DNA of 64,000 nt from contig JAXGNL010000009.1 in assembly GCA_040768005.1 (NCBI GenBank), positions 1,471 through 65,470 on the forward strand. The letters are read 5' to 3'. Shown here piece after piece: positions 23,048 through 57,892 of this stretch. Position 1 is the stretch's first letter. Each line of letters begins with the position of its first letter. Under the pieces are notes generated by a model. The model saw only the letters and a program-made list of their open reading frames with translations. It was not told the DNA's origin and did no database searches. The position numbers and the translations under genes are program-made. The stretch comes from Kiritimatiellia bacterium (GTDB lineage Bacteria; Verrucomicrobiota; Kiritimatiellia; CAIQIC01; Lenti-01).

Positions 23048-23175
23048 GTGCAGACCGGCAGAGGCCGGCGCCGGACGCCAGCGGGTGAGCGGCGTTGAGC
23101 TTGTGCGCGGCCCGGAACCGCGACGCCCGGGCTTGACTGGGACGCAGGGCATGATAGTTTCGGCTCCGATAAATG

Positions 23176-23280
23176 GTCGCTAGGGGTGTCCTCGAGAAAG
23201 AGGGCTGAGAGTTCCCGTTGGGCGGGATAACCCTTGGAACCTGTTGGATCATTCCAGCGCAGGGACAGCGGATCGCTCGA
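23176..23280 (+). promoter_or_regulatory. TPP (THI-box) riboswitch
   Basis: GGGGTG...CTGAGA...ACCCTTGGAACCTGTTGGATCATTCCAGCGCAGGGA matches the conserved THI-box core. Lies directly upstream of cytX-thiM-thiE-thiD. Confidence 0.85.
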
Positions 23281-23366
23281 AAGAAGCCGTGGTTTCTCCG
23301 ATGGAACCGCGGCTTTGGCATGCCGTGGCGGCAGGCTCCCCGGCGCACCGGAAAGGAACCGGAGAC

Positions 23367-31146: not shown

Positions 31147-31221
31147 TGGAGGCGCGGATCGGAATCGAACCGATGAATAAGGATTTTGCAGACCCTCGCC
31201 TTACCACTTGGCTACCGCGCC
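31147..31221 (-). tRNA. tRNA-Cys (GCA)
   Basis: Reverse complement GGCGCGGTAGCCAAGTGGTAAGGCGAGGGTCTGCAAAATCCTTATTCATCGGTTCGATTCCGATCCGCGCCTCCA folds as a cloverleaf. Anticodon loop CTGCAAA; CCA is encoded. Confidence 0.9.
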
Positions 31222-38467: not shown

Positions 38468-40126
<1,659 letters not shown>

Positions 40127-40130
<4 letters not shown>

Positions 40131-42492: not shown

Positions 42493-43617
42493 ATGAGCAC
42501 ACCTTTTGAGATGATCGGCACCGTGGAAGAGCTGCACCGCGCGGTGGAGCGGATGCGCGGGGAAAGCGCCGTTGCGCTGGATACCGAGTTTGTGTGGGAG
42601 AAGACCTACTACGCGCAGCTGGGGCTGGTCCAGGCCGCGCTGGCCGACGGCACCTGCTTCCTGTTCGATGCCGTGGCGCTGCCGGACCTCGCGCCGCTGG
42701 GCGAAATCCTGGGCGACCGCCGGATCGTCAAGCTGCTGCACGATGCCCCCCAGGATCTGATGATCCTGCGCCGGGCCACGGGCGCTGTCGCCCAGACCAT
42801 CTTCGATACCCGCCTGGCGGCCGGCTTTGCCGGCCTGGCGTCCACGCTGTCCCTCGGCCGTCTGCTGGAAGAAGTGATGGGCATCCAGCTGGCCAAGGCC
42901 CATACCCGGGCGGACTGGCGGGCGCGTCCCCTGGCGCCGGAAGTGCTCGACTACGCGGCCGACGATGTTGTCCACCTGCCGGAGCTGGCTGCGCGCCTCC
43001 GCGAACGCGCGCGCGCGTCCGGCATCGAAGCCTGGCTCGACGAAGAGCTGGCGTCGCTGGATGCGCCGGACGTGACGGAAGACAAGTCCCCCCTGGAGGC
43101 CTGGCGCCGCATCCGGGTGATGCCGCCGCCGCCGCCGCGCGTCCTGGCCGTGCTGCGCGAACTGGCCGCCTGGCGGGAAGAGCAGGCGCGCCGGGCCGAT
43201 CTGCCCCGCCGATGGCTGATGGAAGACCGGGTCCTGGCGGATACGGCCCTGCAAATGCCCCGGTCGAAGGAGGACCTGGCCCGGGTTCCCGGGCTGTCGG
43301 CCAAGACCCTCCAGCGTCGCGGCGACGACCTGCTGGCGGCCGTGGCGCGAGGCCTGGAATGCCCGGAAGAAGACCTGCCCGAGCCGGAACCCGCTGCCCG
43401 GCGCGATGCCCCGTTTCGTCAGGCGCTGGACTCCGCCCTGAAAGCCATTCAAACCCATGCCGCCGGCATGGGGCTGGATCCGGCCCTGGTCTGCAGCCGG
43501 CGCGACCTGGCCGCCTGTTTGCAGGCGGAGGAGGCAGAGACATCCCTTCACCCCTTGCGTCGCGGCTGGCGGGCGGAATTTCTCCGACGGGCTTCCATCC
43601 CGTTGTCCCCGCCATAA
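42493..43617 (+). CDS. rnd: ribonuclease D
   Basis: ALDTEFVWEKTYYAQLGLVQ..., KLLHDAPQDL, YAADDVVHL (DEDDy exonuclease motifs) plus an HRDC-like region. Confidence 0.85.
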   Translation: MSTPFEMIGTVEELHRAVERMRGESAVALDTEFVWEKTYYAQLGLVQAALADGTCFLFDAVALPDLAPLGEILGDRRIVKLLHDAPQDLMILRRATGAVAQTIFDTRLAAGFAGLASTLSLGRLLEEVMGIQLAKAHTRADWRARPLAPEVLDYAADDVVHLPELAARLRERARASGIEAWLDEELASLDAPDVTEDKSPLEAWRRIRVMPPPPPRVLAVLRELAAWREEQARRADLPRRWLMEDRVLADTALQMPRSKEDLARVPGLSAKTLQRRGDDLLAAVARGLECPEEDLPEPEPAARRDAPFRQALDSALKAIQTHAAGMGLDPALVCSRRDLAACLQAEEAETSLHPLRRGWRAEFLRRASIPLSPP

Positions 43618-43682
43618 ATAATCCACCCTCCCGCCGGCGAAAAACAGCTGACTCGTCCGGAGGCTTTTGCTACAGTGGCCCC

Positions 43683-44438
43683 ATGAACAAACGGACCTGG
43701 TTCTGGTTGGCGGGGATATGGCTCCTCGGTGCGGTTTGGACTTTCGGGCAGGATGGGCAGATTGATGCCGACCGCTACCGGCAGAGCCTCAACCGGGGCA
43801 GCGAATGCGTGTACGACGAAGCCGGGGTGTTCACTCCGGAGCAGAAGGCGGACCTGATCCGGCGCATCGAGGCGGCCTGGGAGGCCGATCAGGGGGCGCT
43901 GGTGGTCGCGGCCGTGAAAACCCTCCATGGCGGGGAAATCAACGACTTCGCCAACCAGCTGTTCCAGCAATGGGGCATCGGGGAGAAGGGCAAGGACAAC
44001 GGCATCCTGCTGCTGGCGGCGATCGAAGACCGGAAAGTGCGCATTGAACCGGGCTACGGATTCGAGGGAGTGCTGACCGATGCCCGCTGCGGGCGGATCC
44101 TGGACGAACATATCCTGCCGCACTTCAAGGCCGGCGATTATGCCGCCGGGCTGGCCGCGGGGGCAGAGGCCCTGCTGCAGGTCATGGCCGGCGAGGAAAT
44201 CCCGGAAGCCGCCGCCGCTCAGGGCAGTCCCGTCGCGGGACTGGTCGTGGCGCTGATCTTCGTCCTGATCTTCGGACTGATCATCTGGTCGGCCATTCGC
44301 GGGGCCAAGTCCGGCCGCGGCGGCGGGGGGGTATCGGGCGGCGGGGGCGGATTTTCCGGCGGGGGCGGGGGCGGCAGCAGTTTCGGCGGATTCGGCGGCG
44401 GCCGCTCAGGCGGCGGCGGTGCCAGCCGCGGATGGTGA
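43683..44438 (+). CDS. TPM-domain (YgcG-like) protein with Gly-rich tail
   Basis: VYDEAGVFTPEQKADL..., GILLLAAIEDRKVRIEPGYGFEG, one TM helix, then a GGGGFSGGGGG tail. Confidence 0.8.
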   Translation: MNKRTWFWLAGIWLLGAVWTFGQDGQIDADRYRQSLNRGSECVYDEAGVFTPEQKADLIRRIEAAWEADQGALVVAAVKTLHGGEINDFANQLFQQWGIGEKGKDNGILLLAAIEDRKVRIEPGYGFEGVLTDARCGRILDEHILPHFKAGDYAAGLAAGAEALLQVMAGEEIPEAAAAQGSPVAGLVVALIFVLIFGLIIWSAIRGAKSGRGGGGVSGGGGGFSGGGGGGSSFGGFGGGRSGGGGASRGW

Positions 44439-44468
44439 TGTGAAACAAGTGCGGAAAAGGAGCGAATC

Positions 44469-45035
44469 ATGAACAAAGGTTGTTTGCTGGCCGCGGTTGC
44501 CGGCGTGGTGGTGCTGCTCGTGGTCCTGCTGACCTGGATGGGCATGTACAACGGCATCGTGACGCAGGATGAAGAATGCAACAAAGCCTGGGCCAACGTG
44601 GAGTCGGTGCTGCAGCGCCGCTTCGACCTGATTCCCAACCTGGTCAATACCGTCAAGGGCTATGCCGAGCATGAAAAAGGGATCCTCGAGGAAGTGACCC
44701 GCCTGCGCAGCCAGTGGGGCGAGGCCCAGACCACGGAGCAGAAGGCCGGCGTGGCCTCCATGCTGGAAGGCGCGCTGGGTCGCCTGATGGTCGTGGTGGA
44801 AAACTATCCCGACCTGAAGGCCAACCAGAACTTCATTTCCCTGCAGGATGAACTGGCCGGCACCGAAAACCGGATCAATGTCGAACGCCAGCGCTACAAC
44901 AGCGCCGTCCAGGGCTACAACACCACCATCCGGCGCATGCCGACCGCCCTGGTGGCGCGGATCTCCGGGTTCCAGCCCCGCACGCCGTTCGAGGCCGCGC
45001 AGGGCGCCGAAACCGCCCCGACCGTCCAGTTTTAG
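44469..45035 (+). CDS. lemA: LemA family protein
   Basis: 188 aa. RRFDLIPNLVNTVKGYAEHEK..., ENYPDLKANQNF..LQDELAGTENRI...RYN..V..YN. Confidence 0.9.
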   Translation: MNKGCLLAAVAGVVVLLVVLLTWMGMYNGIVTQDEECNKAWANVESVLQRRFDLIPNLVNTVKGYAEHEKGILEEVTRLRSQWGEAQTTEQKAGVASMLEGALGRLMVVVENYPDLKANQNFISLQDELAGTENRINVERQRYNSAVQGYNTTIRRMPTALVARISGFQPRTPFEAAQGAETAPTVQF

Positions 45036-45250
45036 CTGCGGGATTCACGCCGGGACACGTGCGGCGGAAAACCCGGACGCGTCCCGGTTCTCCCCGGGCC
45101 GGGCGGGGGCTGTTGCAGACCAGAGGACTCTCTTTGAAAGCGGTCCGGCTTCAGGGGGGAACGTCACTCCCGTCGCCGGCCTCCGGCAATCCTCTGGCCC
45201 CATCCGGGCTTCCGCCCCGCGAGCACAATACAGGCGCCCCCGCCGGGCTT

Positions 45251-45307
45251 GTTCAACCCGGGATTGCAGCGAGGCTTCGCACGCAACTGATCCCTGCTTT
45301 GTTCAAC
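45251..45307 (-). repeat. candidate terminal attC (cassette 14)
   Basis: TTCAACCCGGGATTGCAGCGAGGCTTCGCACGCAACTGATCCCTGCTTTGTTCAAC. CAAC and GTTCAAC boxes, CCGGGAT/ATCCCTG pairing. Weaker than the other attC sites. Confidence 0.4.
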
Positions 45308-45311
45308 GCAT

Positions 45312-45713
45312 TCATTGTTTGTTCAACAGGATCCCGTCGGCAGTGTAGACGAGTATATTGGTTGCGGTAACTCTGTAGTGAAGATTCAAGGTCTTCGTCA
45401 CATAATCAAGCGCATCGCGCATTGTGATTCTCCGCAGATTCAGAGTGAGAGGAGGAAGATTGGAGCATGCCGGTAGAGAGCGATCTAATATGACTGGCCG
45501 GGGAACAGGCGGAGCGTTGATATCCATCAGGCCAATGGGCCTCATGTCGTCAGCTTCGGGCATCATGATTATTCCGGAAATCATGAATTCCAGCACATCC
45601 GTGGCATTCCCGTCACGGAATATGCATGTGGGGATAATCATGGTGTCCAGCCGGTCGCCGATTGTCCCAGATTGTGCATTTGTATATGCGAAAGCGGACG
45701 TCCATGCCGCCAA
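45312..45713 (-). CDS. hypothetical protein fragment with PVC-type IIP..F...DVL.F / LTLNL..I...DAL.Y repeat domain, probably 5'-truncated
   Basis: ...DRLDTMIIPTCIFRDGNATDVLEFM...LTLNLRRITMRDALDYVTKTLNLHYRVTATNILVYT. No signal peptide. The ORF starts at the edge of the intron remnant. Confidence 0.5.
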   Translation of the reverse strand: MAAWTSAFAYTNAQSGTIGDRLDTMIIPTCIFRDGNATDVLEFMISGIIMMPEADDMRPIGLMDINAPPVPRPVILDRSLPACSNLPPLTLNLRRITMRDALDYVTKTLNLHYRVTATNILVYTADGILLNKQ

Positions 45714-45723
45714 GAACAGAAAT

Positions 45724-46165
45724 GCGATATGAAGGCCGGGTCACGGGGCGAGGTGGCACAACACACGGAAGCCCTTGATCTAGTGGACAAGGAAAATCGC
45801 GCGGTGGCGCAGCGGAAGTTCACGTTCTTATCTGGGGAGATTCCCAGGAGGAAATGCCTTGGGAAGTCCGTAGCGGCCATAGTAGCGCTGAAGCCCGTGT
45901 AAGCGGAGGGAGCGAAGGGCCGAACCGGTCGGCTGGCACTCGACCGCGGGATGGACATTGGAGCTGTTGACGCCCGATGGGGCCAGGTCTTCAATGAGTG
46001 CCGTTCCGGGGGAAGCATGGAGTGCCTGGGGCGGGGTCTTCGGATTCAGCCGTGCGGTTGGGGTTCATCCCTGATCGTCTGACCGGAACCGCCGGATGCG
46101 GAGCCGCATGTCCGGTGGTGTGGGAGTTGGGGCCGGCTCATTAGGGCCGGCTCCGGCGACCCGAT
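45724..46165 (+). mobile_element. group II intron remnant (ORF-less, 5'-truncated)
   Basis: GGCCGGGTCACGGGG..GGTGGCACAACACACGGAAGCCC...GTTCACGTTCTTATCTGGGGAGAT...CATAGTAGC aligns with 48023-48190 of the full intron. The 3' end CCCGAT|TCGGC parallels CCTCGAT|TCGCA of the full copy. Confidence 0.6.
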
Positions 46166-46178
46166 TCGGCGCCTTCAT

Positions 46179-46481
46179 CTACGCCATGGCAAAGGCTTGT
46201 ACTTCTTGCTCCAGCCGATCACCGAGCTTGTCTTGTTCCTGTTCCAGGTCAAAATGCGCCTGTAGGTTCAGCCAGAACTGCGGCGAGATGCCGAAATACC
46301 GGCCAAGCCGCAGGGCGGTATCCGCAGTCACGCTACGGGTGCCATGCACGATCTCATTGATTCGCCGTGGCGGGACGCTGATGTCGCGCGACAGGCGATA
46401 CTGGGAAATACCCATGGGGGCCAGAAATTCCTCCATGAGAATCTCGCCGGGATGGACGGGGGGCATTTTGTTGGTTCTCAT
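46179..46481 (-). CDS. higA: HigA antitoxin (XRE HTH)
   Basis: ATG 46481: MRTNKMPPVHPGEILMEEFLAPMGISQYRLSRDISVPPRRINEIVHGTRSVTADTALRLGRYFGISPQFWLNLQ. Confidence 0.9.
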   Translation of the reverse strand: MRTNKMPPVHPGEILMEEFLAPMGISQYRLSRDISVPPRRINEIVHGTRSVTADTALRLGRYFGISPQFWLNLQAHFDLEQEQDKLGDRLEQEVQAFAMA

Positions 46482-46491
46482 GTCTTTTCTC

Positions 46492-46771
46492 CTAATGATA
46501 ATCCACAATCTCAACATCATGCGCGGCCTTCTCTCCATCGAAAGCAAATGCGCCATTGGTCATTGATCCGAATGCTATGCTGTCCCGCTCGGTTGCCGGC
46601 CAGAGCTTCCAGCCGGTTCCCAGGCGGTACCCGCAGAGAGATCAAATCCGGCGCCGCATCAATCATCCAGAGTTTCCGCAAGGCCGTCCGCTGAATGTCA
46701 TGGGGGAGCTTTCGCACAACCTCCCGCCGGAATATCTTTTCAGCCTCCGGGCTTCTGAATGACTTGATCAT
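46492..46771 (-). pseudogene. higB: HigB toxin (RelE/ParE superfamily), last 10 codons in another frame as read
   Basis: MIKSFRSPEAEKIFRRE...LRVPPGNRLEALAGNRAGQHSIRINDQWRICFRWREG then TGA. The expected ending AHDVEIVDYH-TAG is in the +1 frame and finishes just before the higA RBS. Confidence 0.8.
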
Positions 46772-46828
46772 GGGCAGAACATAACGCGCCGCGGTAATAT
46801 CGTCAAGCGTTACTATTCAGTTTCTTTC

Positions 46829-46893
46829 GGTGAACGTCAGCGTTCTCCGGACGGCGCACTTTGTGCGACGTACGGAGCAACGCCTTGTTCGCC
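46829..46893 (-). repeat. attC (cassette 12)
   Basis: GGTGAACGTCAGCGTTCTCCGGACGGCGCACTTTGTGCGACGTACGGAGCAACGCCTTGTTCGCC. Confidence 0.85.
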
Positions 46894-46897
46894 GACT

Positions 46898-47239
46898 TTA
46901 TTCATATGATGTGAATAGCGCTTGGATCTGCCCTTCGCCGTTGTATACCACGTCTAGGGGGCAGTTCGTATCCTTTAGGATATGATATTGAATCATCCTT
47001 TCATCTTCTTTGAGCGAGTAACTATGTCCCCATAAGGATTGGGAGGGGGATATAGGCTTACTGTTATAGCTCCATATCATTCCCTCAAGCTCGGTCTGCG
47101 TTTGAGCCTTCATCCACCGGGTTTCATTCATAAGGCAGAAGGCATAATGTCCGCTATCAGTCTTAAATAGCCATAAGCACAATGCGACAGAGATGCCGAC
47201 TATCGCCAATAGGGTATATTTAATAATCGGCGCTTTCAT
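46898..47239 (-). CDS. cassette ORF, membrane-anchored protein of unknown function
   Basis: 113 aa. MKAPIIKYTLLAIVGISVALCLWLF anchor. Fills the cassette between attC 12 and attC 11. Confidence 0.6.
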   Translation of the reverse strand: MKAPIIKYTLLAIVGISVALCLWLFKTDSGHYAFCLMNETRWMKAQTQTELEGMIWSYNSKPISPSQSLWGHSYSLKEDERMIQYHILKDTNCPLDVVYNGEGQIQALFTSYE

Positions 47240-47246
47240 TTCTTAG

Positions 47247-47311
47247 TTCCAACGTCAGCGTTCTCCGGACGGCGCACCTTGTGCGACGTACGGAGCAACG
47301 CCTTGTTGGGA
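47247..47311 (-). repeat. attC (cassette 11)
   Basis: TTCCAACGTCAGCGTTCTCCGGACGGCGCACCTTGTGCGACGTACGGAGCAACGCCTTGTTGGGA. The core differs from attC 12 at one position. Confidence 0.85.
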
Positions 47312-47776
47312 TTCTTTTCTTTCATAAAGGAATTGGATGCGATGCGATTCAATATCGTCAGCCAATGTAAACCACTCACCGATGGGGAGTGGTAGCTCGG
47401 TTTCGGTTGAAAATGAAGTTAACACGGGTTGCATCAGGACCAGTTCTCCAATAGTGTAGGGAACCCAGTCCGATAGTTTATGACAGTCAATCTTAAGTAT
47501 GCACCGCACGCTCATTTCAGCTTCTTCAATCACATCAACCGAAATATAATAACCTAGTCCGGTGCGCTCGAATTTAGTCGGACGCCCATCGTTTTCGTAT
47601 TCAGTGGGGTACTCGAGAAAGAAATCATATGGGCGTTCGCCCGTCTTTCCGTTGATGGGAACGGTAAAAACCAAGTTAGTTGTTTCGGGGAATATGACAC
47701 TAAGTTTGTCGGCGCCAAAGGCCGTTAGCGAAATAAGGGCTGTAGTGAAAAGGGCAACGTAATATCTTGTAGTCAT
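47255..47776 (-). CDS. cassette ORF, secreted protein of unknown function
   Basis: 173 aa. Signal peptide MTTRYYVALFTTALISLTAFGA. The 3' end runs into attC 11. Confidence 0.6.
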   Translation of the reverse strand: MTTRYYVALFTTALISLTAFGADKLSVIFPETTNLVFTVPINGKTGERPYDFFLEYPTEYENDGRPTKFERTGLGYYISVDVIEEAEMSVRCILKIDCHKLSDWVPYTIGELVLMQPVLTSFSTETELPLPIGEWFTLADDIESHRIQFLYERKESQQGVAPYVAQGAPSGER

Positions 47777-47790
47777 AGTTCTTCTCTCTT

Positions 47791-47844
47791 AATCACGGGT
47801 CAGGGGACCCGACACCTTGTGGCGGGTACCCTGGACCCGCTTGT
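47791..47844 (-). repeat. attC (cassette 10), interrupted by group II intron
   Basis: AATCACGGGTCAGGGGACCCGACACCTTGTGGCGGGTACCCTGGACCCGCTTGT, completed by TCGCA at 49645-49649. This gives GCTTGTTCGCA, as in the other attC right boxes. The left box is degenerate (CAC instead of AAC). Confidence 0.7.
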
Positions 47845-49644
47845 GTACGCCCAGCATGGGCGTGAAGCGTATGGGGTTGAAGTCCCCTGTACATGGAATC
47901 AACCTACCGAAAGGAAGGGAAAAGTACGAGCCAAAAGCAAGGGCGGTCGGGTAACCGGCGGTCTGGAGGAAGCTGGCGGCGAAGTCACGGGCCGATGAAC
48001 AAGAATTGCATAGCAGGCCGAGTGGGCCGGGTGAGTGGGCACAAGACCACGAAACCCGCTGGTTCAGCCCATACGGTAAATGCGGCGGCCGCGGGACGGA
48101 CGTTCACGCTCTTATCTGGGGAGATCCCGTCCCGACCTCTCAAGAGTCGGGACCGGGAAGTCAGCCGAGGGCATAGTAGCCCAACGCCGGAGGCAATGCT
48201 CCGGACATGGTGAAGGCCCGAACATCGGAACCGGGGAGGACGCCCGTCGCTCCCGCCGCCTTGATGAACCCGAATGGGGGAGAGCGCGGCGGCAACACGG
48301 CGGCCCCGTCTGCCCCGCAACCCACCGACCTGCTCGAACGGGTCCTGGATCGCGGCAACCTCAACCGGGCCTGGCGCCGGGTCAAAGCCAACGGCGGCGC
48401 ACCCGGCATCGACGGCATGACCGTCGAAGCCTTCCCGGAATGGGCGCGCGTGAACTGGGCTCCGATCCGGCAGGCGATCCTGACGGGAACCTACCGCCCT
48501 TCGCCGGTGCGGCGGGTGGAGATTCCCAAGGCCTCTGGAGGCAAACGCCCGCTGGGCATCCCGACCGTCACGGACCGGGTGATCCAGCAGGGCATTCTCC
48601 AGGTGCTCGGCCCGATGTGGGACCCCGGATTCTCGGAGTCCAGCTTCGGGTTCCGTCCCGGACGCAACGCCCACGGAGCTGTCAAGCAGGTCCAGGGGCT
48701 GATCCGCACCGGCCGCCGCTGGGCGGTCGATATCGACCTGCGGAAGTTCTTCGACACCGTGGACCACCGGATCGTCATGAGCCGGTTGGCCCGCAAGATC
48801 GAAGGCCAGCCGCTGTTGAGGCTGATCGGCCGCTACCTGCGGGCGGGCGTCATGATCGACGGACACATCGAACCCACGCGGGAGGGCGTGCCCCAGGGCG
48901 GGCCGCTCTCGCCCCTGCTGGCCAACATCGTTCTGGACGACCTCGACCGGATGCTGGATCAACGCGGTCATGCGTTCGCGCGGTACGCGGACGACTTCGT
49001 GATCCTGGTCCGGAGCGAACGGGCGGCCCAACGCGTGATGGCCGGCGTCTGCACCTTTCTGGAACGCAGGCTCAAGCTCCGCATCCATACCGGCAAAAGC
49101 CGCATCGTGCGCGGTTCGCAACTCGATTACCTCGGGTTCTGCTTCGCACGCGGCCGCATCCGGCTCACCCACGAGGCCCTGCTGAACTTCAAGCGGGAAC
49201 TCCGGTGGTGGACCGGGCGGCACTGGTTGAAGTCGATGGACGTGCGCCTTGCCAAGCTGCGGTCCTACGTGCAGGGGTGGATGAACTACTACGGGCTCTC
49301 CGGCGTCTACCGCGACTGGCCGGGTCTGGACGACTGGCTGCGGCGGCGGATTCGGATGTGCTACTGGGTGATGTGGAAACGTCCCCGGCCCCGCATCCGC
49401 AACCTGCGCGCCCTCGGCGTCCCGATCCGCCAGGCGGTCGGCCTCGGCCGCAGCAGTCTCGGATCGTGGAAGTGCGCCCGACTGCTTGGGTTCGCGATGT
49501 CAAAGAGCTGGCTGGAAAAGCAGGGTCTCATCTGCCTCGCAGACGACTGGTGAGCGGCGCTGGTACTGGGTCCGGCGAACGCCGGTGAATCTGCAACGCG
49601 TACGGTGGCAGGGAGGAGCTAATCACTCCCTTACCCACCTCGAT
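47845..49644 (+). mobile_element. group II intron, class C attC-targeting type (1800 nt)
   Basis: Starts GTACG directly after an attC stem-loop ending in TTGT. Ends ...CCTCGAT before TCGCA. Encodes an RT/maturase without an endonuclease domain. Orientation is antisense to the cassettes. Confidence 0.8.
48207..49553 (+). CDS. group II intron reverse transcriptase/maturase
   Basis: RVEIPKASGGKRPLGIPTVTDRVIQQ, FGFRPGRNAHGAV, DIDLRKFFDTVDH, GVPQGGPLSPLLANIVL, ARYADDFVILV, maturase RSYVQGWMNYYG. No HNH/En domain. The start could instead be ATG 48264. Confidence 0.9.
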   Translation: MVKARTSEPGRTPVAPAALMNPNGGERGGNTAAPSAPQPTDLLERVLDRGNLNRAWRRVKANGGAPGIDGMTVEAFPEWARVNWAPIRQAILTGTYRPSPVRRVEIPKASGGKRPLGIPTVTDRVIQQGILQVLGPMWDPGFSESSFGFRPGRNAHGAVKQVQGLIRTGRRWAVDIDLRKFFDTVDHRIVMSRLARKIEGQPLLRLIGRYLRAGVMIDGHIEPTREGVPQGGPLSPLLANIVLDDLDRMLDQRGHAFARYADDFVILVRSERAAQRVMAGVCTFLERRLKLRIHTGKSRIVRGSQLDYLGFCFARGRIRLTHEALLNFKRELRWWTGRHWLKSMDVRLAKLRSYVQGWMNYYGLSGVYRDWPGLDDWLRRRIRMCYWVMWKRPRPRIRNLRALGVPIRQAVGLGRSSLGSWKCARLLGFAMSKSWLEKQGLICLADDW

Positions 49645-49748
49645 TCGCATTATTATTTTGGCTGTTCGGCTGTTCCATCGTTCCCTTGTCCGGGCTGAAA
49701 TCGCTTTGCTTCCTCACCATCCGCCGGCATCACTCGGAATCATTATTT

Positions 49749-49812
49749 TCAGAACGTCAGCGTTCTGGGACAGCGCACTTTGTGCGCTGTACCCAGCAAC
49801 GCCGTGTTCTGT
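49749..49812 (-). repeat. attC (cassette 9)
   Basis: TCAGAACGTCAGCGTTCTGGGACAGCGCACTTTGTGCGCTGTACCCAGCAACGCCGTGTTCTGT. Confidence 0.85.
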
Positions 49813-50242
49813 GTCATTGTTTTATGATCCTCATCAGTTCTTCTGGGCCAAACCGCTCCCGCATGAGGTGGATAATTCCAAAGCGCCTGGCAGAATCCAT
49901 TCGGAGGGATAACCCCCAGCCCCTTTATCTGTTTTTGTCGGGGGGCCAACATCGTTTCAAAGTGACGCTGGAAATCGGCGTATGCAGGCAATATCGGCTT
50001 CTGCTCTGAAGTGTTTTAAAGAACTCAAGTTCCGCAAGCACGTCAGGCCTGTGTAGATGGAAGCCGAGAACACAATGGAGTCCTCGTAGCGGTTCGCATT
50101 TGAGGGTGTAATACGTGTTTGACCTTTTTGAGCGCGTAGCCATCAAAAAGGTCTTCCAGTTCCAGATTGCTTATCCGCCAAGGAATGAACTTTAGCGGGG
50201 CGGGTAAGTTGAAATCCTGATGTTAAGTCCATTATCTCTTTC
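49813..50242 (-). pseudogene. cassette 9 coding remnant, fragmented over three frames
   Basis: Pieces read on the minus strand: MDLTSGFQLTRPAKVH..., KFIPWRISNLELEDLFDGYALKKVKHVLHPQ, LRGLHCVLGFHLHRPDVLAELEFFKTLQ, KPILPAYADFQRHFETMLAPRQKQIKGLGVIPPNGFCQALWNY, IHLMRERFGPEELMRIIKQ-stop just before the attC. Confidence 0.4.
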
Positions 50243-50301
50243 ACAGAACGTCAGTGGTGAGGGCGCGAGTTTACGAGCGTACTTCCACCACCTTGTTGGG
50301 G
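50243..50301 (-). repeat. attC (cassette 8)
   Basis: ACAGAACGTCAGTGGTGAGGGCGCGAGTTTACGAGCGTACTTCCACCACCTTGTTGGGG. Near-identical to attC 1. Confidence 0.85.
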
Positions 50302-50304
50302 CTG

Positions 50305-50547
50305 TTATTCGGTTTCATCTTTGAATTCTTTGCACCATTTGGCGGCGTAATAGGCGCTAATAGGCAGGATCACCAAGAAGTGGATTGCGGCAATCAGTCC
50401 TTTCCAGAACTGTGGCGCCGTTCCGGGCAGTAACTCGGCCGGCGAGATGGTGCTGCAGCCAAAACAGCAGCATGGCCAGATAGAGAACAGCTGCCCGACA
50501 ATACGCCAGCCGCCAGCTCAAGCTATTTTCAATTTCTGAATATTCAT
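50305..50547 (-). pseudogene. cassette 8 ORF, small membrane protein with in-frame TGA at codon 10
   Basis: ATG 50547: MNIQKLKIA-TGA-AGGWRIVGQLFSIWPCCCFGCSTISPAELLPGTAPQFWKGLIAAIHFLVILPISAYYAAKWCKEFKDETE-TAA. The stop lies 3 nt before attC 8. The TGA is at 50518-50520. Confidence 0.5.
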
Positions 50548-50557
50548 TTTCTCGTGG

Positions 50558-50616
50558 CCCCAACGTCAGCGTCAGACGCGCCACTGTGGCGCGTATCCAG
50601 CAGCGCATTGTTGTGC
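50558..50616 (-). repeat. attC (cassette 7)
   Basis: CCCCAACGTCAGCGTCAGACGCGCCACTGTGGCGCGTATCCAGCAGCGCATTGTTGTGC. Related to attC 2. Confidence 0.85.
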
Positions 50617-50624
50617 CTTTTGTA

Positions 50625-51251
50625 TTATTCATGCACGGGGATATTGTCTGATACGAAGTGAAGAATTCGACCTTTTTCGCGAATATATCTTCCAATTCTT
50701 TCCAAAATGCGCTTTGGGCCGAGCGGACTTGTCGTTAGGGTCCTTTAATCTCGCAAAAGAACCAATCTGAAAGATCTGGTTTTAGTAAACAAATAAATCC
50801 GGGGTCCTCTGTAGCCATGGGCCTTCTTGGCAAACTCCACATTCGATCAAACAAAGGCGAAGAAACGCACTGATGGAAGATTGACGCTTTACGAGGGTGT
50901 CGCTCATTGGCGTTTTAATGTCGTGTATTTTTCGACCAGACTCAAATACCCTCGCTCATGCCACCATACATGGCCGCGGATGCTTCATAAAAGTGGTGAT
51001 GGCGTTGATTAAGGAATATTTCAAGGTCCCGCCGCCAGTATCTTAGAAATAAGCATGGGGTCATGAGAAATATTGAAGTCTTTGGAGTATTTCACCTGGA
51101 GCGATACCGCGCGTGTCTGCCGTTTATTTGTAACCAAGAAGTCGATACCCGTGTCCTTAGAGGGTATCCATACAGATAAATCGCGGAAATGTGCTTCAAT
51201 ATATGAGCCGACTAAGTACTCGCCAGCATGAACGGTAAATAGTGTCTTCAT
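50625..51251 (-). pseudogene. cassette 7 ORF, PD-(D/E)XK nuclease-like protein, fragmented as read
   Basis: MKTLFTVHAGEYLVGSYIEAHFRDLSVWIPSKDTGIDFLVTNKRQTRAVSLQVKYS has a D...(S/E)xQVK arrangement. It continues in shifted frames (WRRDLEIFLNQRHHHFYEASAAMYGGMSEG / VFESGRKIHDIKTPMSDTLVKRQ... / IGRYIREKGRILHFVSDNIPVHE-TAA). The first and last pieces are in the same frame. Confidence 0.45.
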
Positions 51252-51264
51252 AATTGTCTTTCTC

Positions 51265-51378
51265 GGTGAACGTCAGGGTTCAGGCTCGACCCACGGCTGT
51301 ACGGTGTAGGTGTGTAGCGAGCGGAAGGGTGTGCAGTGCGGCAGCTTGTGGGTCGTAGTCTGGAACCCCTTGTTCGAC
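51265..51378 (-). repeat. attC (cassette 6), long form (114 nt)
   Basis: GGTGAACGTCAGGGTTCAGGCTCGACCCACGGCTG...CAGCTTGTGGGTCGTAGTCTGGAACCCCTTGTTCGAC. Confidence 0.75.
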
Positions 51379-51563
51379 GATTTTTCATCCTCAAAATGCG
51401 AAAAATGGCCTGAAAATGGCCCAAAATGGGCTGTAGAGGCTATTTTGGGCACTATTTTCATGTTTTCGGGCCGTCGCGGAGGCTTGTAGCCGTCCGCTTG
51501 ACGATTTCTCCTCAATATTGGCCTGCTGTCGCCCATAGCGCCATCATTTTCATCTACTTCTTT

Positions 51564-51641
51564 GTCGAACGCCCACCGTGACCCTCGTTTCACGCCGCGT
51601 CCGCGCGGTGTGAAACGTAGCGGTCCACGGTGTTGTTCGCA
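51564..51641 (-). repeat. attC (cassette 5)
   Basis: GTCGAACGCCCACCGTGACCCTCGTTTCACGCCGCGTCCGCGCGGTGTGAAACGTAGCGGTCCACGGTGTTGTTCGCA. Confidence 0.8.
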
Positions 51642-51644
51642 CAG

Positions 51645-52412
51645 CTACTCCTGCTTCGCCAGTCCGTCCAGGCCCGCCAGAAAAGGCGACTTCACGATCT
51701 GCACGACAACAGGAGCGGTGACGGCGACAACTGCGTCGAGCGAGTAGCGAAATGAGACCTTCTGCTTGAACGTTTCCGCCTTGTCGTATCCCTTGTCCAT
51801 CTCTCCTATGGTCTCCAACTGCTTGAGCGATCCCTTATTGTATGTCATGAGGGGTTTGAGGTCTTTGGACAGCAGGACGAAATCCATTGGCATAAGCACG
51901 CTGGCGAATTGCGCCCCAGCAAACATCGTTGTGAGGGAGGGGCGTGGATCATTGACGGCCAGCACGAGCAGCATATCTGCTGCTTTAAACTGATCCAACC
52001 CCGCTCGCACAGTCTGACCGGACAGAAGTGCTGTCGTATCCAGCTTGATGCTTCCACCAATCGCCTCGACCTGTGCAACAATGCTCGCAACGATCAGCTG
52101 ACTGATTGAGTTCGTCGGAACCACAGGTCTGTAGGACAACCACTCCGTGAGATTCGTTCTGGCGTAGTCGGTCCCCATCTTTGGGTTCAGGTATTCCTTT
52201 GGCTCACCATCAACAATCGAGAAACTCTGGTAGTTGATGACGAGTACCCCCACCGATCTCGGTTGGTGCAGTTTCCCGAAATCAGTGGCCTGCCATTCTG
52301 CCTTCTCTGGTGCCTCGTCGGTGGCGACTTTCACCTTTGCCTCATCCGCAAGCCCTAGACTAGCCACCGCTAACACACCACACGCCCAAACCCATGCTGC
52401 CTTTGTCCTCAT
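51645..52412 (-). CDS. cassette 5 ORF, secreted protein of unknown function
   Basis: Intact ORF of about 255 aa. MRTKAAWVWACGVLAVASLGLA signal peptide. No recognisable domain. Confidence 0.65.
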   Translation of the reverse strand: MRTKAAWVWACGVLAVASLGLADEAKVKVATDEAPEKAEWQATDFGKLHQPRSVGVLVINYQSFSIVDGEPKEYLNPKMGTDYARTNLTEWLSYRPVVPTNSISQLIVASIVAQVEAIGGSIKLDTTALLSGQTVRAGLDQFKAADMLLVLAVNDPRPSLTTMFAGAQFASVLMPMDFVLLSKDLKPLMTYNKGSLKQLETIGEMDKGYDKAETFKQKVSFRYSLDAVVAVTAPVVVQIVKSPFLAGLDGLAKQE

Positions 52413-52432
52413 CTTCTCTGCTCCTTTCTCCA

Positions 52433-52493
52433 TGCGAACGTCCGGCCTCTGCGGCGACGCGATAGCGACGTACGCAGCAGGCCGTTGTTGGCC
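52433..52493 (-). repeat. attC (cassette 4)
   Basis: TGCGAACGTCCGGCCTCTGCGGCGACGCGATAGCGACGTACGCAGCAGGCCGTTGTTGGCC. Confidence 0.8.
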
Positions 52494-53534
52494 TCATCTC
52501 TGTTTTCCTTCATGCCACGGTGGAGTTCGAGGCAAGCCAAGCGCTTCGCGCTCTGTGTCATCGAGGACACGGCACGTCAGCGGGTCGCCCCAACCATCGA
52601 GCGCTATCGTTCGATCTGGTGCTTCAGTCGCTCTACGTGCTCGGTCGCGGTCAAAGGGCTCTCGCGCCTCTGTGCCCCGAGCCGTTGGGCGTGAACGTTC
52701 GTCAAGATAGCTGAAGGCTAGATATTCTGGTCCCACTCCGGTCTTGATATGCATCCATTCGTTCAGGGGGTACTCTCGGCGAGGGCCGGGTTCAGGCATT
52801 CCGAGTGTTGGCAGATACAACGAGATTCCAGCAAATAGATTCAGACACACACCGATCACAACGCCAGTCCATAGGAGGCGCTGGGGCCTCTTCAAGTCCG
52901 CGAATGAGAACAGGCGTAGCCCCATCCATAGCCAGAGCCCAACCAACAAGCCGCCGAAGTTCATCCCCACATTGCTACGTGTAAATGCGAATGCGGTGTT
53001 GACCGTGATTTGGGTGAACCCCGGGAGGCATGCACCTTCGAGCATGCGCTCGTAGAGATCGACGGCACGGGGCACAACTGCGATAGCGACCACAACAAGA
53101 ACAATGGTCAGTAGCGAATGTCCTGCCAGCGCAATGGCCGACATATAATTCGGGGTGGCTTTAGGGTGGGATGGAGCAGGAGTCTCATCCAGAGGAGACG
53201 GCCCAAATCGATTCGCACCGGCATTGCCACGAAAGAACCCAAGCTCGATGAATAGCCACAACCAACCGATGACGGGGATAAGCGAGATAAGCAAGAACCA
53301 AGCGGAATGGTTACGGTCATGCGCTCTTTTCACCCAGAGCGGCAGTTGAAACCAAAGCAGCGCAATGCTGAAGGCAGCAGACCACCCGGTGATGAGAAGA
53401 GGCGGACCATAAAGTACGGCAAGAACGGCAAATGGGATGACGGTCGCGAAGAACAAGGGCGCTACCCCTTTGTTCCAGAACTGGAAGCGACTCATCCGCC
53501 CCGAATACGAAGTCAGCGCCTGAACTATCGTCAT
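52494..53534 (-). CDS. cassette 4 ORF, DUF805-domain membrane protein fused to extra TM and C-terminal regions
   Basis: MTIVQALTSYSGRMSRFQFW...LWVKRAHDRNHSAWFLLISLIPVIGWLWLFIELGFFRGNAGANRFGP is the DUF805 pattern. Four or five further TM helices follow, then a charged tail. Confidence 0.7.
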   Translation of the reverse strand: MTIVQALTSYSGRMSRFQFWNKGVAPLFFATVIPFAVLAVLYGPPLLITGWSAAFSIALLWFQLPLWVKRAHDRNHSAWFLLISLIPVIGWLWLFIELGFFRGNAGANRFGPSPLDETPAPSHPKATPNYMSAIALAGHSLLTIVLVVVAIAVVPRAVDLYERMLEGACLPGFTQITVNTAFAFTRSNVGMNFGGLLVGLWLWMGLRLFSFADLKRPQRLLWTGVVIGVCLNLFAGISLYLPTLGMPEPGPRREYPLNEWMHIKTGVGPEYLAFSYLDERSRPTARGTEAREPFDRDRARRATEAPDRTIALDGWGDPLTCRVLDDTEREALGLPRTPPWHEGKQR

Positions 53535-53555
53535 CTCTTTTCTCCTTCTGCTGGT

Positions 53556-53620
53556 GACCAACGTCAGGGCTCACGCTCAGCGCACGTTAGTGCGCTGTAG
53601 TGTGCAGCCCATGGTTCGCA
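53556..53620 (-). repeat. attC (cassette 3)
   Basis: GACCAACGTCAGGGCTCACGCTCAGCGCACGTTAGTGCGCTGTAGTGTGCAGCCCATGGTTCGCA. Confidence 0.8.
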
Positions 53621-53712
53621 TCCTTCTCTTTATGGGTCAGTAGAAACCTTCCAGTATTTCTGTGTAACTAATATTAGTGTGTATGAATTGATGGCTGGAG
53701 CGTCAGGCATCT

Positions 53713-54583
53713 CTACCATGCGTCCCGTATATGGTAGTATTTTTTTATACCACTCGGCACCATATCAGTGTAAACATTAACAGGGGGTGTAGCCTGAATG
53801 CCATTTGCAAGAGTTGTCCATCCATCCCACCCAGCAGGCAAATTTGTAGAATGTTTTATTTCGTATGTGTGATTTGCTGCGCTTTCCCATTGTATAACAG
53901 GATGTCCGCTTGCAGATTCTATTGAAGTTAAGTACGCCCTATCATCTGCGTCAGTTATATTAATAACGAACACCTTTTGCGTAAACAGCCCGCTCTGATC
54001 TGCAGACTGCGCGCGAATACTGTAAGTGTTTTTTTGCTCATAATCAAATGACGCCGTCGCTAGCAGGTTACTGCCGCTTATGCTGAAGGACCCGTTGTCT
54101 CCGCTCCCAGTTCCGGCAACCAGTGTGTAGGTGAATGTATTGGCGAAATCTGGGTCTTGGGTACTTAAGGAGCCAACCGTCGTGCCTACTGCCAGATTCT
54201 CAATCACGTTTGTACTGGACAGCAGGATGTTGGTCGGGGTCTCGTTCGTGTTGAGAACATTGATCGCAAACACTTTCTGGGTGGACAGGCCGCCCTGATC
54301 GGCAGACTGGACTCGGATGCTGTAGTTGCTCTTGACCTCGTAGTTGAATATGGCCGCCGTCAACAGATTGCTCCCGCTGATTGTGAACGATCCGTTGTCT
54401 CCACTGCCCGTCCCGGCAACCAGTGTGTAGGTGAATGTATTCCCCAGAACCTCATATTCTGCACCTTGAGCGTTTGTCCGGACACAGCCCTCACTTCGGC
54501 AGTGCGTTTCTTGAAAGTGTCAAACCCCGCCTGGGTTGCGGATATTGTGACCAAGAAGAGCCCTACTGCAACGATCGCCTCAT
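53713..54583 (-). pseudogene. cassette 3 ORF, secreted cadherin-like repeat protein, 5' end in other frames as read
   Basis: Repeats FxYE..xxYSIRVQSADQGGLxTQKVFxINVxxxNExP occur twice in ORF 53713-54363. Upstream, AAGGAG-ATG (54583) MRR, then the signal-like IVAVGLFLVTISATQA and EYEVLGNTFTYTLVAGTGSGDNGSFTISGSNLL lie in two other frames. Confidence 0.6.
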
Positions 54584-54602
54584 CTTTCGTTCTCCTTTCG
54601 CT

Positions 54603-54661
54603 GCCTAACGTCAGCGTTTGGGACGCGCCACTTGTGGCGTACCAGCAGCGCATTGTTCGCT
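54603..54661 (-). repeat. attC (cassette 2)
   Basis: GCCTAACGTCAGCGTTTGGGACGCGCCACTTGTGGCGTACCAGCAGCGCATTGTTCGCT. In cassette orientation the R' box is the canonical GTTAGGC. Confidence 0.85.
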
Positions 54662-55526
54662 GCTCTATTTCTGCCATGTCTTTTTCATGTTCGCGATCAC
54701 GCAAGGTGTCACGGTTCTTTGTAATGAACTCGGCATCCACAGGATTTTGAATCGGCCTCATTTCTGCGCTTTTGCCAAGATATAAATTCTGCTCGTCCAG
54801 CAACTTGCAGGACGTTGTCAAGATTCTCGTCGGATAATCGGGAATCCTAGCAGCGATTTTTTGTACTTCGCTTGCAGCTTCAATAGTAGTTATTTTCCAA
54901 TACGGTAAATGCAACATAGTTCTTCACGAAGCGTATGGTGGGGCTTCAAAATATCGCCAATAGAATTAAGCAGCGCACGCGCTGCTTCAATTGTCCATAG
55001 TGATTTCTTTTCCAGAATGCCTCGTCGTACACCTCGCCATCCCCCGTTCCGTCATCCGGTTCCTCGTAGGTATCCACATCTTTGAGAAGTGGAGGGCCTG
55101 TGGCCACCTGACTCGATCATATTGACCTGGACGGCGATTATCGGAATAGAGTTGCTGGAGAGTTGTATAACGTTGAAGAACCGACGTGTGATGCACTCGG
55201 CCACGAGAACTGCATAGTGCTGCCGTTGCGGCCACCGTCGCCGTTGTCCCAGTATTCAATCGTACGGGTGATGTGTGATTCATCGTTTCGCTGAAAGCAT
55301 AATCTCGACCTCATATTACTGAATCGTCTTCGGGATTTTTATGAGGACATCCAGTCGTCCACTGACGACTGGATACGTTCCTTTGATACCGACTCCAGAT
55401 CGCCGAGTCCAAGGCAGGTCGGATTGTCGTATATTTGGTCACGTAGCCAGTATTCATACTAACTCCGGCATCAAGCGTATGCTCACAGCACTAGCAATAG
55501 TAATATCCATATTATCTCTTTCAAAA

Positions 55527-55584
55527 AGCGAACGTCAGTGGTGAGGGGCGAGTTTACGAGCGTACCTTCACCACCTTGTTCGGC
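55527..55584 (-). repeat. attC (cassette 1)
   Basis: AGCGAACGTCAGTGGTGAGGGGCGAGTTTACGAGCGTACCTTCACCACCTTGTTCGGC. Confidence 0.85.
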
Positions 55585-56385: not shown

Positions 56386-57369
56386 GTGCCGGAGCAGATG
56401 GATCGGGGAAAGGATGGATGGGAACGGCATCTGGTGGATCAGTTGCGGATCAAGCATTACCAATGGCGGACGGAACAGACCTATCGGGAACTGGGCTTGG
56501 AAGTTTGCGGATGGCTGGGAAAGAAGCAACTGGAGGAGGCGACCGGGGAGGATTTGAAGCAATATATGACGCATCTGGCGGCCGAAAAGAACGTGGCGGC
56601 CAGCACCCAACGGCAGGCCTTGAACGCCCTGGTTTTCTTCTTCCGTGAAGTGCTGGGGCGGGAGCCTGGGGATTTGACGGGGTTCCAGGCTTCACGGCGT
56701 CCGCCCAGAATCCCAACGGTGCTGACATCGGCGGAGTGCCTCCGGCTGTTTGACCAACTGGCGGGGACGACGAAACTGATGGCGCAACTGATGTATGGGG
56801 CCGGATTGCGGCTGATGGAACTGCTTCGGCTGCGGATCATGGACGTTGATCTGGAGCGGGGAATCGTAACGGTTCGCTCGGGAAAGGGAGGCAAGGATCG
56901 GGTTACGGTCCTGCCGGAATCGCTAAAGGGACCCTTGGCTCAGCATCTGGAACGGTTGCGGAAGCTGTTCGAGGAGGATCGTGCGGAAGGCGCCGCCGGG
57001 ACATGGCTACCCCCGCCAGTGGAACACAAGATTCCCAATGCCGGGAAGACTTGGGCTTGGCAATGGCTGTTTCCTTCCCGTCAGATGGCCATTGACCCCC
57101 GTTCAGGGATTCGCCGGCGCCACCATGTGCAGGATTCGGCATTCCAGACGGCGATCCGCAGGGGGGCGGAGGATGCGAAGATCGCGAAGCGGGTTACTCC
57201 GCATACGCTCCGCCACAGTTTCGCGACGCATCTATTGCAGGCGGGGCACGACATCCGTACGGTCCAGGAGTTGCTGGGCCATGCGGCCGTGGAGACGACG
57301 ATGATCTATACCCATGTGCTGAACAAACCGGGGGTGACCGTTCGCAGTCCCTTGGATGCGGGGAGATAA
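56386..57369 (+). CDS. intI: integron integrase
   Basis: 327 aa. LRIKHYQWRTEQTY, AASTQRQALNALVFFF, GLRLMELLRLRIMDVD, the IntI-specific insert EHKIPNAGKTWAWQWLFPS, HTLRHSFATHLL, ELLGHAAVETTMIYTHV. The same frame is open upstream to 56161 except for one TGA at 56359. Confidence 0.85.
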   Translation: MPEQMDRGKDGWERHLVDQLRIKHYQWRTEQTYRELGLEVCGWLGKKQLEEATGEDLKQYMTHLAAEKNVAASTQRQALNALVFFFREVLGREPGDLTGFQASRRPPRIPTVLTSAECLRLFDQLAGTTKLMAQLMYGAGLRLMELLRLRIMDVDLERGIVTVRSGKGGKDRVTVLPESLKGPLAQHLERLRKLFEEDRAEGAAGTWLPPPVEHKIPNAGKTWAWQWLFPSRQMAIDPRSGIRRRHHVQDSAFQTAIRRGAEDAKIAKRVTPHTLRHSFATHLLQAGHDIRTVQELLGHAAVETTMIYTHVLNKPGVTVRSPLDAGR

Positions 57370-57798: not shown

Positions 57799-57892
57799 TG
57801 GCGGAGAGAGAGGGATTCGAACCCTCGGTACCGGTTGTTACCAGTACGACGGTTTAGCAAACCGTTGCTTTCGGCCACTCAGCCATCTCTCC
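57799..57892 (-). tRNA. tRNA-Ser (GCT)
   Basis: Reverse complement GGAGAGATGGCTGAGTGGCCGAAAGCAACGGTTTGCTAAACCGT...GAGGGTTCGAATCCCTCTCTCTCCGCCA. Long variable arm, anticodon loop TTGCTAA, CCA encoded. Confidence 0.9.

Follow-up and report, generated by a model that had tools for sequence, protein, structure and literature searches.

What is the 1,800-nucleotide (nt) insert that splits the tenth attC site of a chromosomal cassette array in a Kiritimatiellia bacterium, and should it still be able to move? The DNA analyzed here, which we call the window, is a stretch of 64,000 nt from contig JAXGNL010000009.1 of assembly GCA_040768005.1, and all coordinates are positions within it. Based on Rfam models, the family of its reverse transcriptase (RT), and its junction, the insert, intron I1 (47845 to 49644, plus strand, GTACG...GAT), is with a probability of about 0.9 a bacterial class C group II intron of the lineage that targets attC sites (IIC-attC). 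As recorded in the public contig, this copy is ribozyme-dead and should neither splice nor move, because domain V cannot form. Otherwise, I1 is an ordinary member of its lineage, and the new point is its garbled 3' end. A preliminary description of the locus had missed two features, the loss of the R' core of attC 10 and the lack of a domain V in 49553 to 49640.

Intron I1 and its site in attC 10

The half-site of attC 10 begins at 47791, and its end at 47844 reads ...CCCTGGACCCGCTTGT / ...GGACCCGCTTGT. The intron follows directly with GTACG (from 47845) and runs to GAT (49642 to 49644), after which the array resumes with TCGCA (49645 to 49649), giving the junction TTGT|GTACG...GAT|TCGCA. Both intron ends match group II boundaries and are the same in 60 complete relative units. 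The 5' exon is the bottom-strand hairpin of attC 10 (47791 to 47844, plus strand), comprising the L' and L'' boxes and the loop, with a DNA fold of -20.6 kcal/mol (z = -6.0) that none of 200 shuffles equaled. Its last four bases, TTGT (47841 to 47844, plus strand), are the consensus found in the relatives and correspond to intron-binding site 1 (IBS1). In class C introns, a stem-loop 5' exon replaces IBS2 and IBS1 is short (3 to 4 nt), as seen here, with the pairing itself being predicted. The 3' exon starts with TCGCATT (49645 to 49651, plus strand), and joining it to the GT at 47843 to 47844 restores GTTCGCA, which is complementary to the attC 10 R'' core. What is left of cassette 10 (49652 to 49754, minus strand, about 103 nt) contains no open reading frame (ORF) and reaches the R' crossover of attC 9; it is identical in L090, the same locus in another assembly. 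The preliminary description had the split attC, the stem-loop exon, and the roughly 100 nt of non-attC sequence in the carrier cassette right. Its statement that the restored box is exactly that of attC 3 and attC 5 holds only in part, as the 11-mer GCTTGTTCGCA is unique in the window, and the rebuilt attC 10 box has 9 nt (TTGTTCGCA) in common with attC 5 and 7 nt (GTTCGCA) with attC 3.

Rfam models located ribozyme domains I to IV at 47945 to 48218 (plus strand), with group-II-D1D4-3 (RF02001) matching 47945 to 48110 at 120.3 bits (gathering score, 32) and D1D4-1 (RF01998) matching 48134 to 48218 at 37.8 bits (gathering score, 35). Within the first match, the loop GGGCACAAGACC carries ACAA (48041 to 48044, plus strand), which is complementary to UUGU of IBS1 and is conserved in the corresponding loop of 38 of the 42 relatives from which this loop could be extracted; this motif probably pairs with IBS1 as exon-binding site 1 (EBS1). 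The intron-encoded protein (48207 to 49553, plus strand, 448 amino acids [aa]) is an RT with a maturase (X) domain and a YADD motif, encoded inside domain IV. RVT_1 (131.8 bits) and GIIM (46.7 bits) were the only Pfam matches, in line with the endonuclease-less RT/maturase of the preliminary description, and the NCBIfam model TIGR04416 for group II RT/maturases scored 385 bits (cutoff, 300). Among solved structures, the class C RTs of GsI-IIC (2.2e-125, the best) and Eubacterium rectale (2.9e-94) were matched much more strongly than the IIA protein LtrA (1e-40) or a IIB RT (9e-35). In a neighbor-joining tree, the I1 RT falls in a small branch of metagenomic relatives (72 to 98% identity) inside a clade of attC-inserted introns, among them those associated with blaIMP in class 1 integrons, while GsI-IIC lies outside. 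No additional RT fragments were found in the window.

Insertion sites of the relatives were extracted from all 107 fetched loci (labeled with L numbers), which provided 85 distinct 5' junctions. TTGT precedes the intron in 68 of them and TGGT in 9, and another 3 follow the GAT of another intron in a head-to-tail tandem. The 50 to 60 nt upstream of the junctions are attC-type hairpins starting with ...AACG, and the nontandem 3' exons among those listed all start with T. It is this recurrence of TTGT| after an attC-type hairpin at 68 of 85 sites that makes I1 an IIC-attC intron.

IIC-attC introns have been described as a monophyletic subset of class IIC that inserts into the bottom strand of attC sites, opposite to cassette transcription, at TTGT/T in R'' (PMC3001079, PMC7923331, PMC4424553), with TTGT/T being the published insertion consensus (PMC7923331). 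I1 agrees with this definition in strand, orientation, and site: it lies on the plus strand and every cassette ORF on the minus strand, the opposite orientation that had been noticed at first reading. The class C, attC-targeting behavior proposed then is likewise borne out by the RT matches, the tree, and a TTGT|T junction that is also that of the integron introns. The best annotated relatives on plasmids are introns located beside blaIMP-4 and between blaIMP-38 and qacG2 in class 1 integrons (48 to 52% identity), which are also antisense to the cassettes and have junctions of the form ...TTGT|GTACGCCCAGCATGGGC...CTACCCGAT|TAGAA. The intron between blaIMP-4 or blaIMP-38 and qacG2 is known as Kl.pn.I3. 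Introns of mobile integrons, such as S.ma.I2 of Serratia marcescens and those associated with blaIMP, occupy the same antisense bottom-strand TTGT|T site as I1 and also code for an RT with a maturase domain and without an endonuclease domain. The blaIMP-associated introns and I1 have in common the 5' end GTACGCCCAGCATGGGC and the GAT|T end, and their domain V/VI plan, GAACCGCC...GGTGGTGTGGGG...ACCCGAT, is also that of the sister copies of I1. Despite these similarities, amino acid identity between I1 and the blaIMP-associated introns is only 48 to 52%; the host of I1 is a Kiritimatiellia chromosome with a sedentary integron instead of a proteobacterial plasmid; and, unlike the introns of mobile integrons, I1 has no foldable domain V. 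The terminator-targeting class C introns GsI-IIC, B.h.I1, and O.i.I1 resemble I1 in their small ribozyme, endonuclease-less RT, stem-loop 5' exon, and short IBS1, but their targets are Rho-independent terminators, whereas that of I1 is an attC hairpin in a cassette array.

The attC 10 site is damaged on its other side as well. Compared with L090, L091, and L096, the window lacks the 8 nt CCAACGTC at 47793 and with them the R' core; the same hairpin with an intact R' (AATCCCAACGTCACGGG) was found in L090, L091, and L084. An uninterrupted attC with the same stem in L097 was considered as an empty site and rejected, since it belongs to another cassette, with GATGGTTGGGA as its R'' complement. In eight loci from other assemblies (L088, L089, L092 to L095, L097, and L103), the R' core of this type of attC is occupied by an IS110-family element coding for a 387-aa transposase (DEDD_Tnp_IS110 and Transposase_20), ATCCCA|IS|ACGTC, at the equivalent of 47793/47794 of the window, which contains neither this element nor the 8 nt. 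The attC targeting described for IS1111-attC elements (IS110/IS1111 family) matches what this element does at attC 10 in other assemblies of the locus. Unlike I1, which is found at R'', this DNA transposon with its DEDD transposase inserts at R'. Two unrelated attC-specific elements therefore exploit one site.

The altered 3' end of I1

In place of domains V and VI, I1 carries an aberrant tail of 88 nt (49553 to 49640, plus strand) with about 36 differences, including indels, from the canonical tail. The sequences on both sides are nearly or fully unchanged: the intron body (47845 to 49552) differs from the 13 other near-identical copies by only one 3-nt patch, and 49641 to 49750 is fully identical to L090. 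The patch (49229 to 49231, GAA for TGT) replaces Phe-Val by Leu-Lys in the RT's maturase region. The first altered base of the tail creates a stop codon, which makes the RT 7 aa shorter (448 aa versus 455 aa in other copies, P0001 and P0141). The 5' strand of domain V is destroyed, while its 3' strand, CGUACGGUGG, survives, and a shortened domain VI-like hairpin, GGGAGGAGCTAATCACTCCC, remains. The Rfam model for domain V/VI (RF00029) gave no match in I1 at an E value of ≤5, and the minimum-energy fold of the 3' end does not resemble domain V. A domain V drawn by hand and with RNAfold in 49540 to 49650 was reduced to a 5-bp remnant, CGCCG/CGGUG, with a 3-nt bulge, and we rejected it as functional. 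The group II model search proposed in the preliminary description was therefore successful for domains I to IV and not for domains V and VI, and the fold that it expected at the 3' end cannot form, as far as domain V is concerned, in 49553 to 49640.

All other copies carry the canonical tail GAACCGCCGTATGCGGACCCGCACGTACGGTGGTGTGGGGAGGGGGAGCTAATCACTCCCCTTTACCCGAT, with the pattern ...GACTGGTGGCGTTGTGCTCC...ACCGCCGTATGCGGACCCGCACGTACGGTGG...CCCGAT. RF00029 scored 47.4 bits on L084, L090, and L100 (gathering score, 40), and the 13 near-identical copies with a canonical domain V/VI include L090. The 71-nt tails of 39 relatives aligned without gaps, with 99.4% of cells paired; sliding the 3' partners by one to three columns reduced this to 43 to 51%, and 10 pairs were changed on both sides, i.e., they covary. 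A covariance model built from the 71-nt domain V/VI tails of relatives (model R1) found no match on the I1 tail at an E value of ≤10 with filters off. We looked for a source of the odd tail and found none: an exact 29-mer had 0 matches in the metagenome contigs of the Joint Genome Institute (JGI), and blastn-short against the window and the 107 loci recovered only the 16-nt loop region of domain VI that is common to the canonical copies. A mosaic with an intron of the type of I2, a second intron in the window described below, was also considered, and no similarity was found.

Several observations weigh against our reading of I1 as an IIC-attC intron that is now dead. The I1 copy itself has no domain V/VI at its 3' end, a finding that the preliminary description had named as refuting; the identification stands nevertheless, because L090 and 12 other copies have a canonical one. 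An exact 25-mer over the rebuilt junction of an intron-free cassette 10 had 0 matches in the JGI metagenome contigs, which leaves this cassette without the classical empty-site proof. No sigma-70-like outward promoter, comparable to that of S.ma.I2 and able to drive the 173-aa cassette, was detected in 47700 to 49800 on either strand, and the Kiritimatiellia consensus may differ. The clustering of the RT inside class C, anticipated in the preliminary description, is seen in the solved-structure matches and in a tree that has no bootstrap values and was built without the Zimmerly reference set, S.ma.I2, and Ge.s.I1. The dead-copy conclusion hangs on 88 nt in one public metagenome-assembled genome (MAG) contig, which has error-like features elsewhere (indel-rich patches, a frameshift in an ettA-like gene, and the unique 3-nt patch in the RT). 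Last, the I1 RT is 50% identical to that of GsI-IIC and 48 to 52% identical to those of the integron introns, so the separation from other class C introns rests more on RNA and target features. This similarity and the general preference of class C introns for sites after stem-loops would also suit a terminator-targeting intron that reached an attC hairpin by chance and does not belong to the attC lineage. We consider this very improbable, given that the 85 distinct sites of the relatives are attC-like (AACG...TTGT|T) with no T run after them, that the same intron is found in at least 10 different attC sites, that I1 has RNA ends in common with the class 1 integron introns, and that GsI-IIC is outside the attC clade. 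It is hardly credible that the I1 ORF is a free-standing RT cassette (a retron, a defense-associated RT, or a group II-like RT) with no intron. Models for Drt2, retrons, and Drt3 do match it, at a weak 37 to 68 bits, all far under their cutoffs; TIGR04416 is above its own, ribozyme domains I to IV flank the ORF, and the ORF is antisense to the cassette array. Based on the ribozyme domains, the domains V and VI of the sister copies, and TIGR04416, this candidate was rejected.

Taking I1 as an IIC-attC intron, its damaged tail appears to be a single-step change or a sequence error. Slow decay is excluded by the remaining 1,708 nt, which match the family consensus, in the noncoding 5' 362 nt as well as in the ORF, but for one patch in the ORF. 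Whether the genome really contains this tail is close to evenly balanced. The chance that the bacterium carries a normal, active IIC-attC copy, with the tail, the 8-nt loss in R', and the indels to the right of the intron all being consensus or assembly errors, is in our estimate a little under one-half. All 13 other copies, which come from independent assemblies and one of which is L090 at the same locus, have the canonical tail; an exact 29-mer of the odd tail was absent from the JGI contigs; and the 448-aa protein is recorded from a single contig. Furthermore, 49751 to 51030 differs from L090 by about 33 indel events, mostly changes in homopolymer length, and about 25 substitutions, the cassette indels disrupt ORFs that L090 keeps intact, the ettA-like core gene is frameshifted, and the intron body deviates in a single 3-nt block that is unique to the window. 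Against errors of this kind, a 40% difference over 88 nt between perfect flanks exceeds read noise, the window-specific differences in 43257 to 47794 are mostly substitutions at multiples of 3 in higBA and look like real allelic variation, and in the shortened domain VI, both strands have lost bases in such a way that the hairpin is kept; a short-read assembler would not make up sequence, a point that bears only on short-read assembly. Nearly even odds can also be given to a real tail, with a fresh insertion whose ribozyme was knocked out by one natural event, either patchy repair or conversion by a degenerate copy. The intron body equals the family consensus, from which we can assume that the insertion is recent, the change is bounded by two perfectly conserved flanks, the 8 nt lost from R' sit between two TC repeats as in a natural slippage deletion, and real allelic patches occur elsewhere in the strain. 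Here the difficulty is that no donor of the tail was found in the window, the 107 fetched loci, or the JGI metagenome contigs, that no known mechanism makes about 36 scattered changes in 88 nt, and that the contig has error-like features elsewhere. If the tail is real, what has been left behind is an immobile intron whose RT gene is nearly intact. A data problem and biology are equally likely causes of the destroyed domain V.

The remaining defects of the contig can be described independently of the intron. The differences from L090 in 49751 to 51030 interrupt three cassette ORFs, which in L090 code for 182, 81, and 140 aa, and the stems of attC 7, 8, and 9 are damaged as well; these differences could represent either pseudogenization or low sequence quality. 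The ettA-like ABC-F ATPase gene (38468 to 40130, plus strand) is present as two overlapping ORFs with a frameshift near 39635, which bears on the quality of the contig. What is available is a public contig with a scrambled catalytic domain and indel-rich cassettes, and these defects mean that functional claims on the I1 copy need read-level confirmation.

Proposed movement and the distribution of the lineage

The steps by which I1 would have entered attC 10 can be drawn from established work on IIC and IIC-attC introns, with the geometry and sequence rules seen here and the pairing and priming predicted. A particle of intron RNA and RT would recognize the folded single-stranded bottom strand of attC 10, with the hairpin standing in for IBS2. 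EBS1 (ACAA) would pair with TTGT and EBS3 with the T that follows, the RNA would reverse splice between the GT and the T of the R'' complement, and it would then be copied into DNA from a replication-fork primer, as the RT has no endonuclease domain. Once inserted, I1 is antisense to the cassettes, so it would never be spliced from cassette mRNA and would behave in practice as an insertion. It probably parts R'' from the other elements of attC 10 and is placed where transcription from the cassette promoter would pass. With R'' split off by I1 and R' missing, IntI should not excise cassette 10 alone, and cassettes 10 and 11 and the intron are probably locked together.

Near-identical copies of I1 are present in many wastewater and digester assemblies, and the protein of this intron was recorded in 131 blocks of the assembly collection. 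The 13 other near-identical copies differ among themselves by 0 to 4 positions over 1,708 nt and carry at least 10 different 3' exons, each beginning with T. Identical copies at 10 or more attC sites suggest, indirectly, that the family is mobile. L090 agrees with the window in attC 10, in the insertion, and in the 3' exon, TCGCATTATTATTTTGG. In a scan of one genome per species, relatives at 50 to 58% identity appeared in many phyla, including Desulfobacterota, Nitrospirota, Planctomycetota, Latescibacterota, KSB1, Chloroflexi, Verrucomicrobiota, Patescibacteria, many Gammaproteobacteria, and others. The earlier remark that such introns come mostly from proteobacterial integrons is true of the literature and not of their actual distribution. 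The host group, Kiritimatiellia of the Planctomycetes-Verrucomicrobia-Chlamydiae (PVC) group, is new to the literature, while public MAGs from many phyla already contained the lineage. A PVC-group chromosomal integron therefore joins the known hosts of IIC-attC introns, and together with the related loci, it depicts a lineage in which the TTGT/T rule holds across many nonproteobacterial phyla and domain V/VI covaries strongly. This is of use for integron annotation and for targetron-style engineering, and it leaves the picture of how IIC-attC elements work unchanged.

Better leads than the insertion itself are the head-to-tail tandems, the ORF-less attC introns, and the IS110-family element on the same attC. 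Tandem introns, ...ACCCGAT|GTACGCCC, were seen in four loci (L099 at about 2361, L104 at about 130, L017 at 1860, and L058 at 5419). It is plausible that a second copy entered an occupied site, and tandems are to be expected because the hairpin and the TTGT upstream of a resident copy stay intact for retargeting. Complete ORF-less introns of the attC lineage, 597 to 738 nt long, are found in five loci at TTGT beside full-length copies (L012, 999 to 1736 and 2365 to 3101; L020, 2309 to 3020 and 7251 to 7988; L049, 7315 to 8022; L058, 5420 to 6016; and L100, 985 to 1594, the latter of 610 nt). They may be nonautonomous elements moved in trans. ORF-less group II introns have been reported in bacteria (Simon et al. 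2008, as presented in PMC3001079), and I2 and these units likewise lack an RT. All ribozyme domains are present in the complete units of the five loci, which, unlike the introns of Simon et al. 2008 as far as that account presents them, belong to the attC lineage and are seated in attC sites. No description of ORF-less IIC-attC units was found in the literature searchable here.

The integron, the second intron, and neighboring features

The GC content of the window is about 0.67, as a chromosome segment, and drops to about 0.50 across roughly 45 to 57 kb, where the integron is located. The integrase gene intI (56386 to 57369, plus strand) matched TIGR02249 at 383 bits (cutoff, 265) and is transcribed divergently from the cassette array (46829 to 55584, ORFs on the minus strand), the usual layout of an integron. 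Twelve attC sites of the form AACGTC...TTGTTxxx, numbered as in the preliminary description, lie on the plus strand in this interval, with the bottom strands of attC 1 to 9, 11, and 12 on that strand, and there is one remnant in addition. The locus thus combines an IntI-type tyrosine recombinase with an adjoining attC array, as an integron does. Cassette products include 173-aa and 113-aa proteins, HigBA, a DUF805 protein, and a cadherin-repeat protein. In 46525 to 46712, the higBA cassette has a 2-nt deletion (at 46525) compared with eight other assemblies, as a result of which HigB is shorter (84 aa) and HigA longer (125 aa). Its substitutions are 6 nt apart and have the look of a diverged allele.

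Beside the higBA cassette, we found a second intron of the same lineage, I2 (45710 to 46166, plus strand), which is ORF-less and truncated at the 5' end. It was recognized by RF02001 (44.1 bits), RF00029 (38.8 bits), and model R1 (66.1 bits), and its domains V and VI are canonical. About 155 nt are missing at the 5' end, as the alignment starts at position 156 of the 610-nt ORF-less unit of L100. I2 ends in ...ACCCGAT|TCGGCGCC. Its 3' exon, TCGGCGCC, is what remains of the last attC, so that I2 marks the distal border of the array.

The two introns could be taken as a snapshot of intron-mediated cassette genesis according to the Leon-Roy model, as it is cited in PMC3001079 and PMC7923331, an interpretation to which we assign only a slim chance. 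Cassette 10 would then be an almost bare attC with a spacer of about 100 nt carrying the intron, and at the array border, truncated I2 would join an attC remnant to noncassette DNA. If this were true, substrates for recombination and an RT acting in trans could come from the family of ORF-less attC introns together with a ribozyme-dead, RT-coding copy.

Just past the array border, TTGTTCAAC occurs three times inside 80 nt (45252 to 45330). A 133-aa unannotated ORF (45312 to 45713, minus strand) overlaps these repeats and abuts truncated I2. Elsewhere in the window, there are a thiamine pyrophosphate (TPP) riboswitch (23172 to 23283, plus strand, 60 bits), a tRNA-Cys(GCA) gene (31147 to 31221, minus strand), and a tRNA-Ser(GCT) gene (57799 to 57892, minus strand) about 430 nt downstream of intI.

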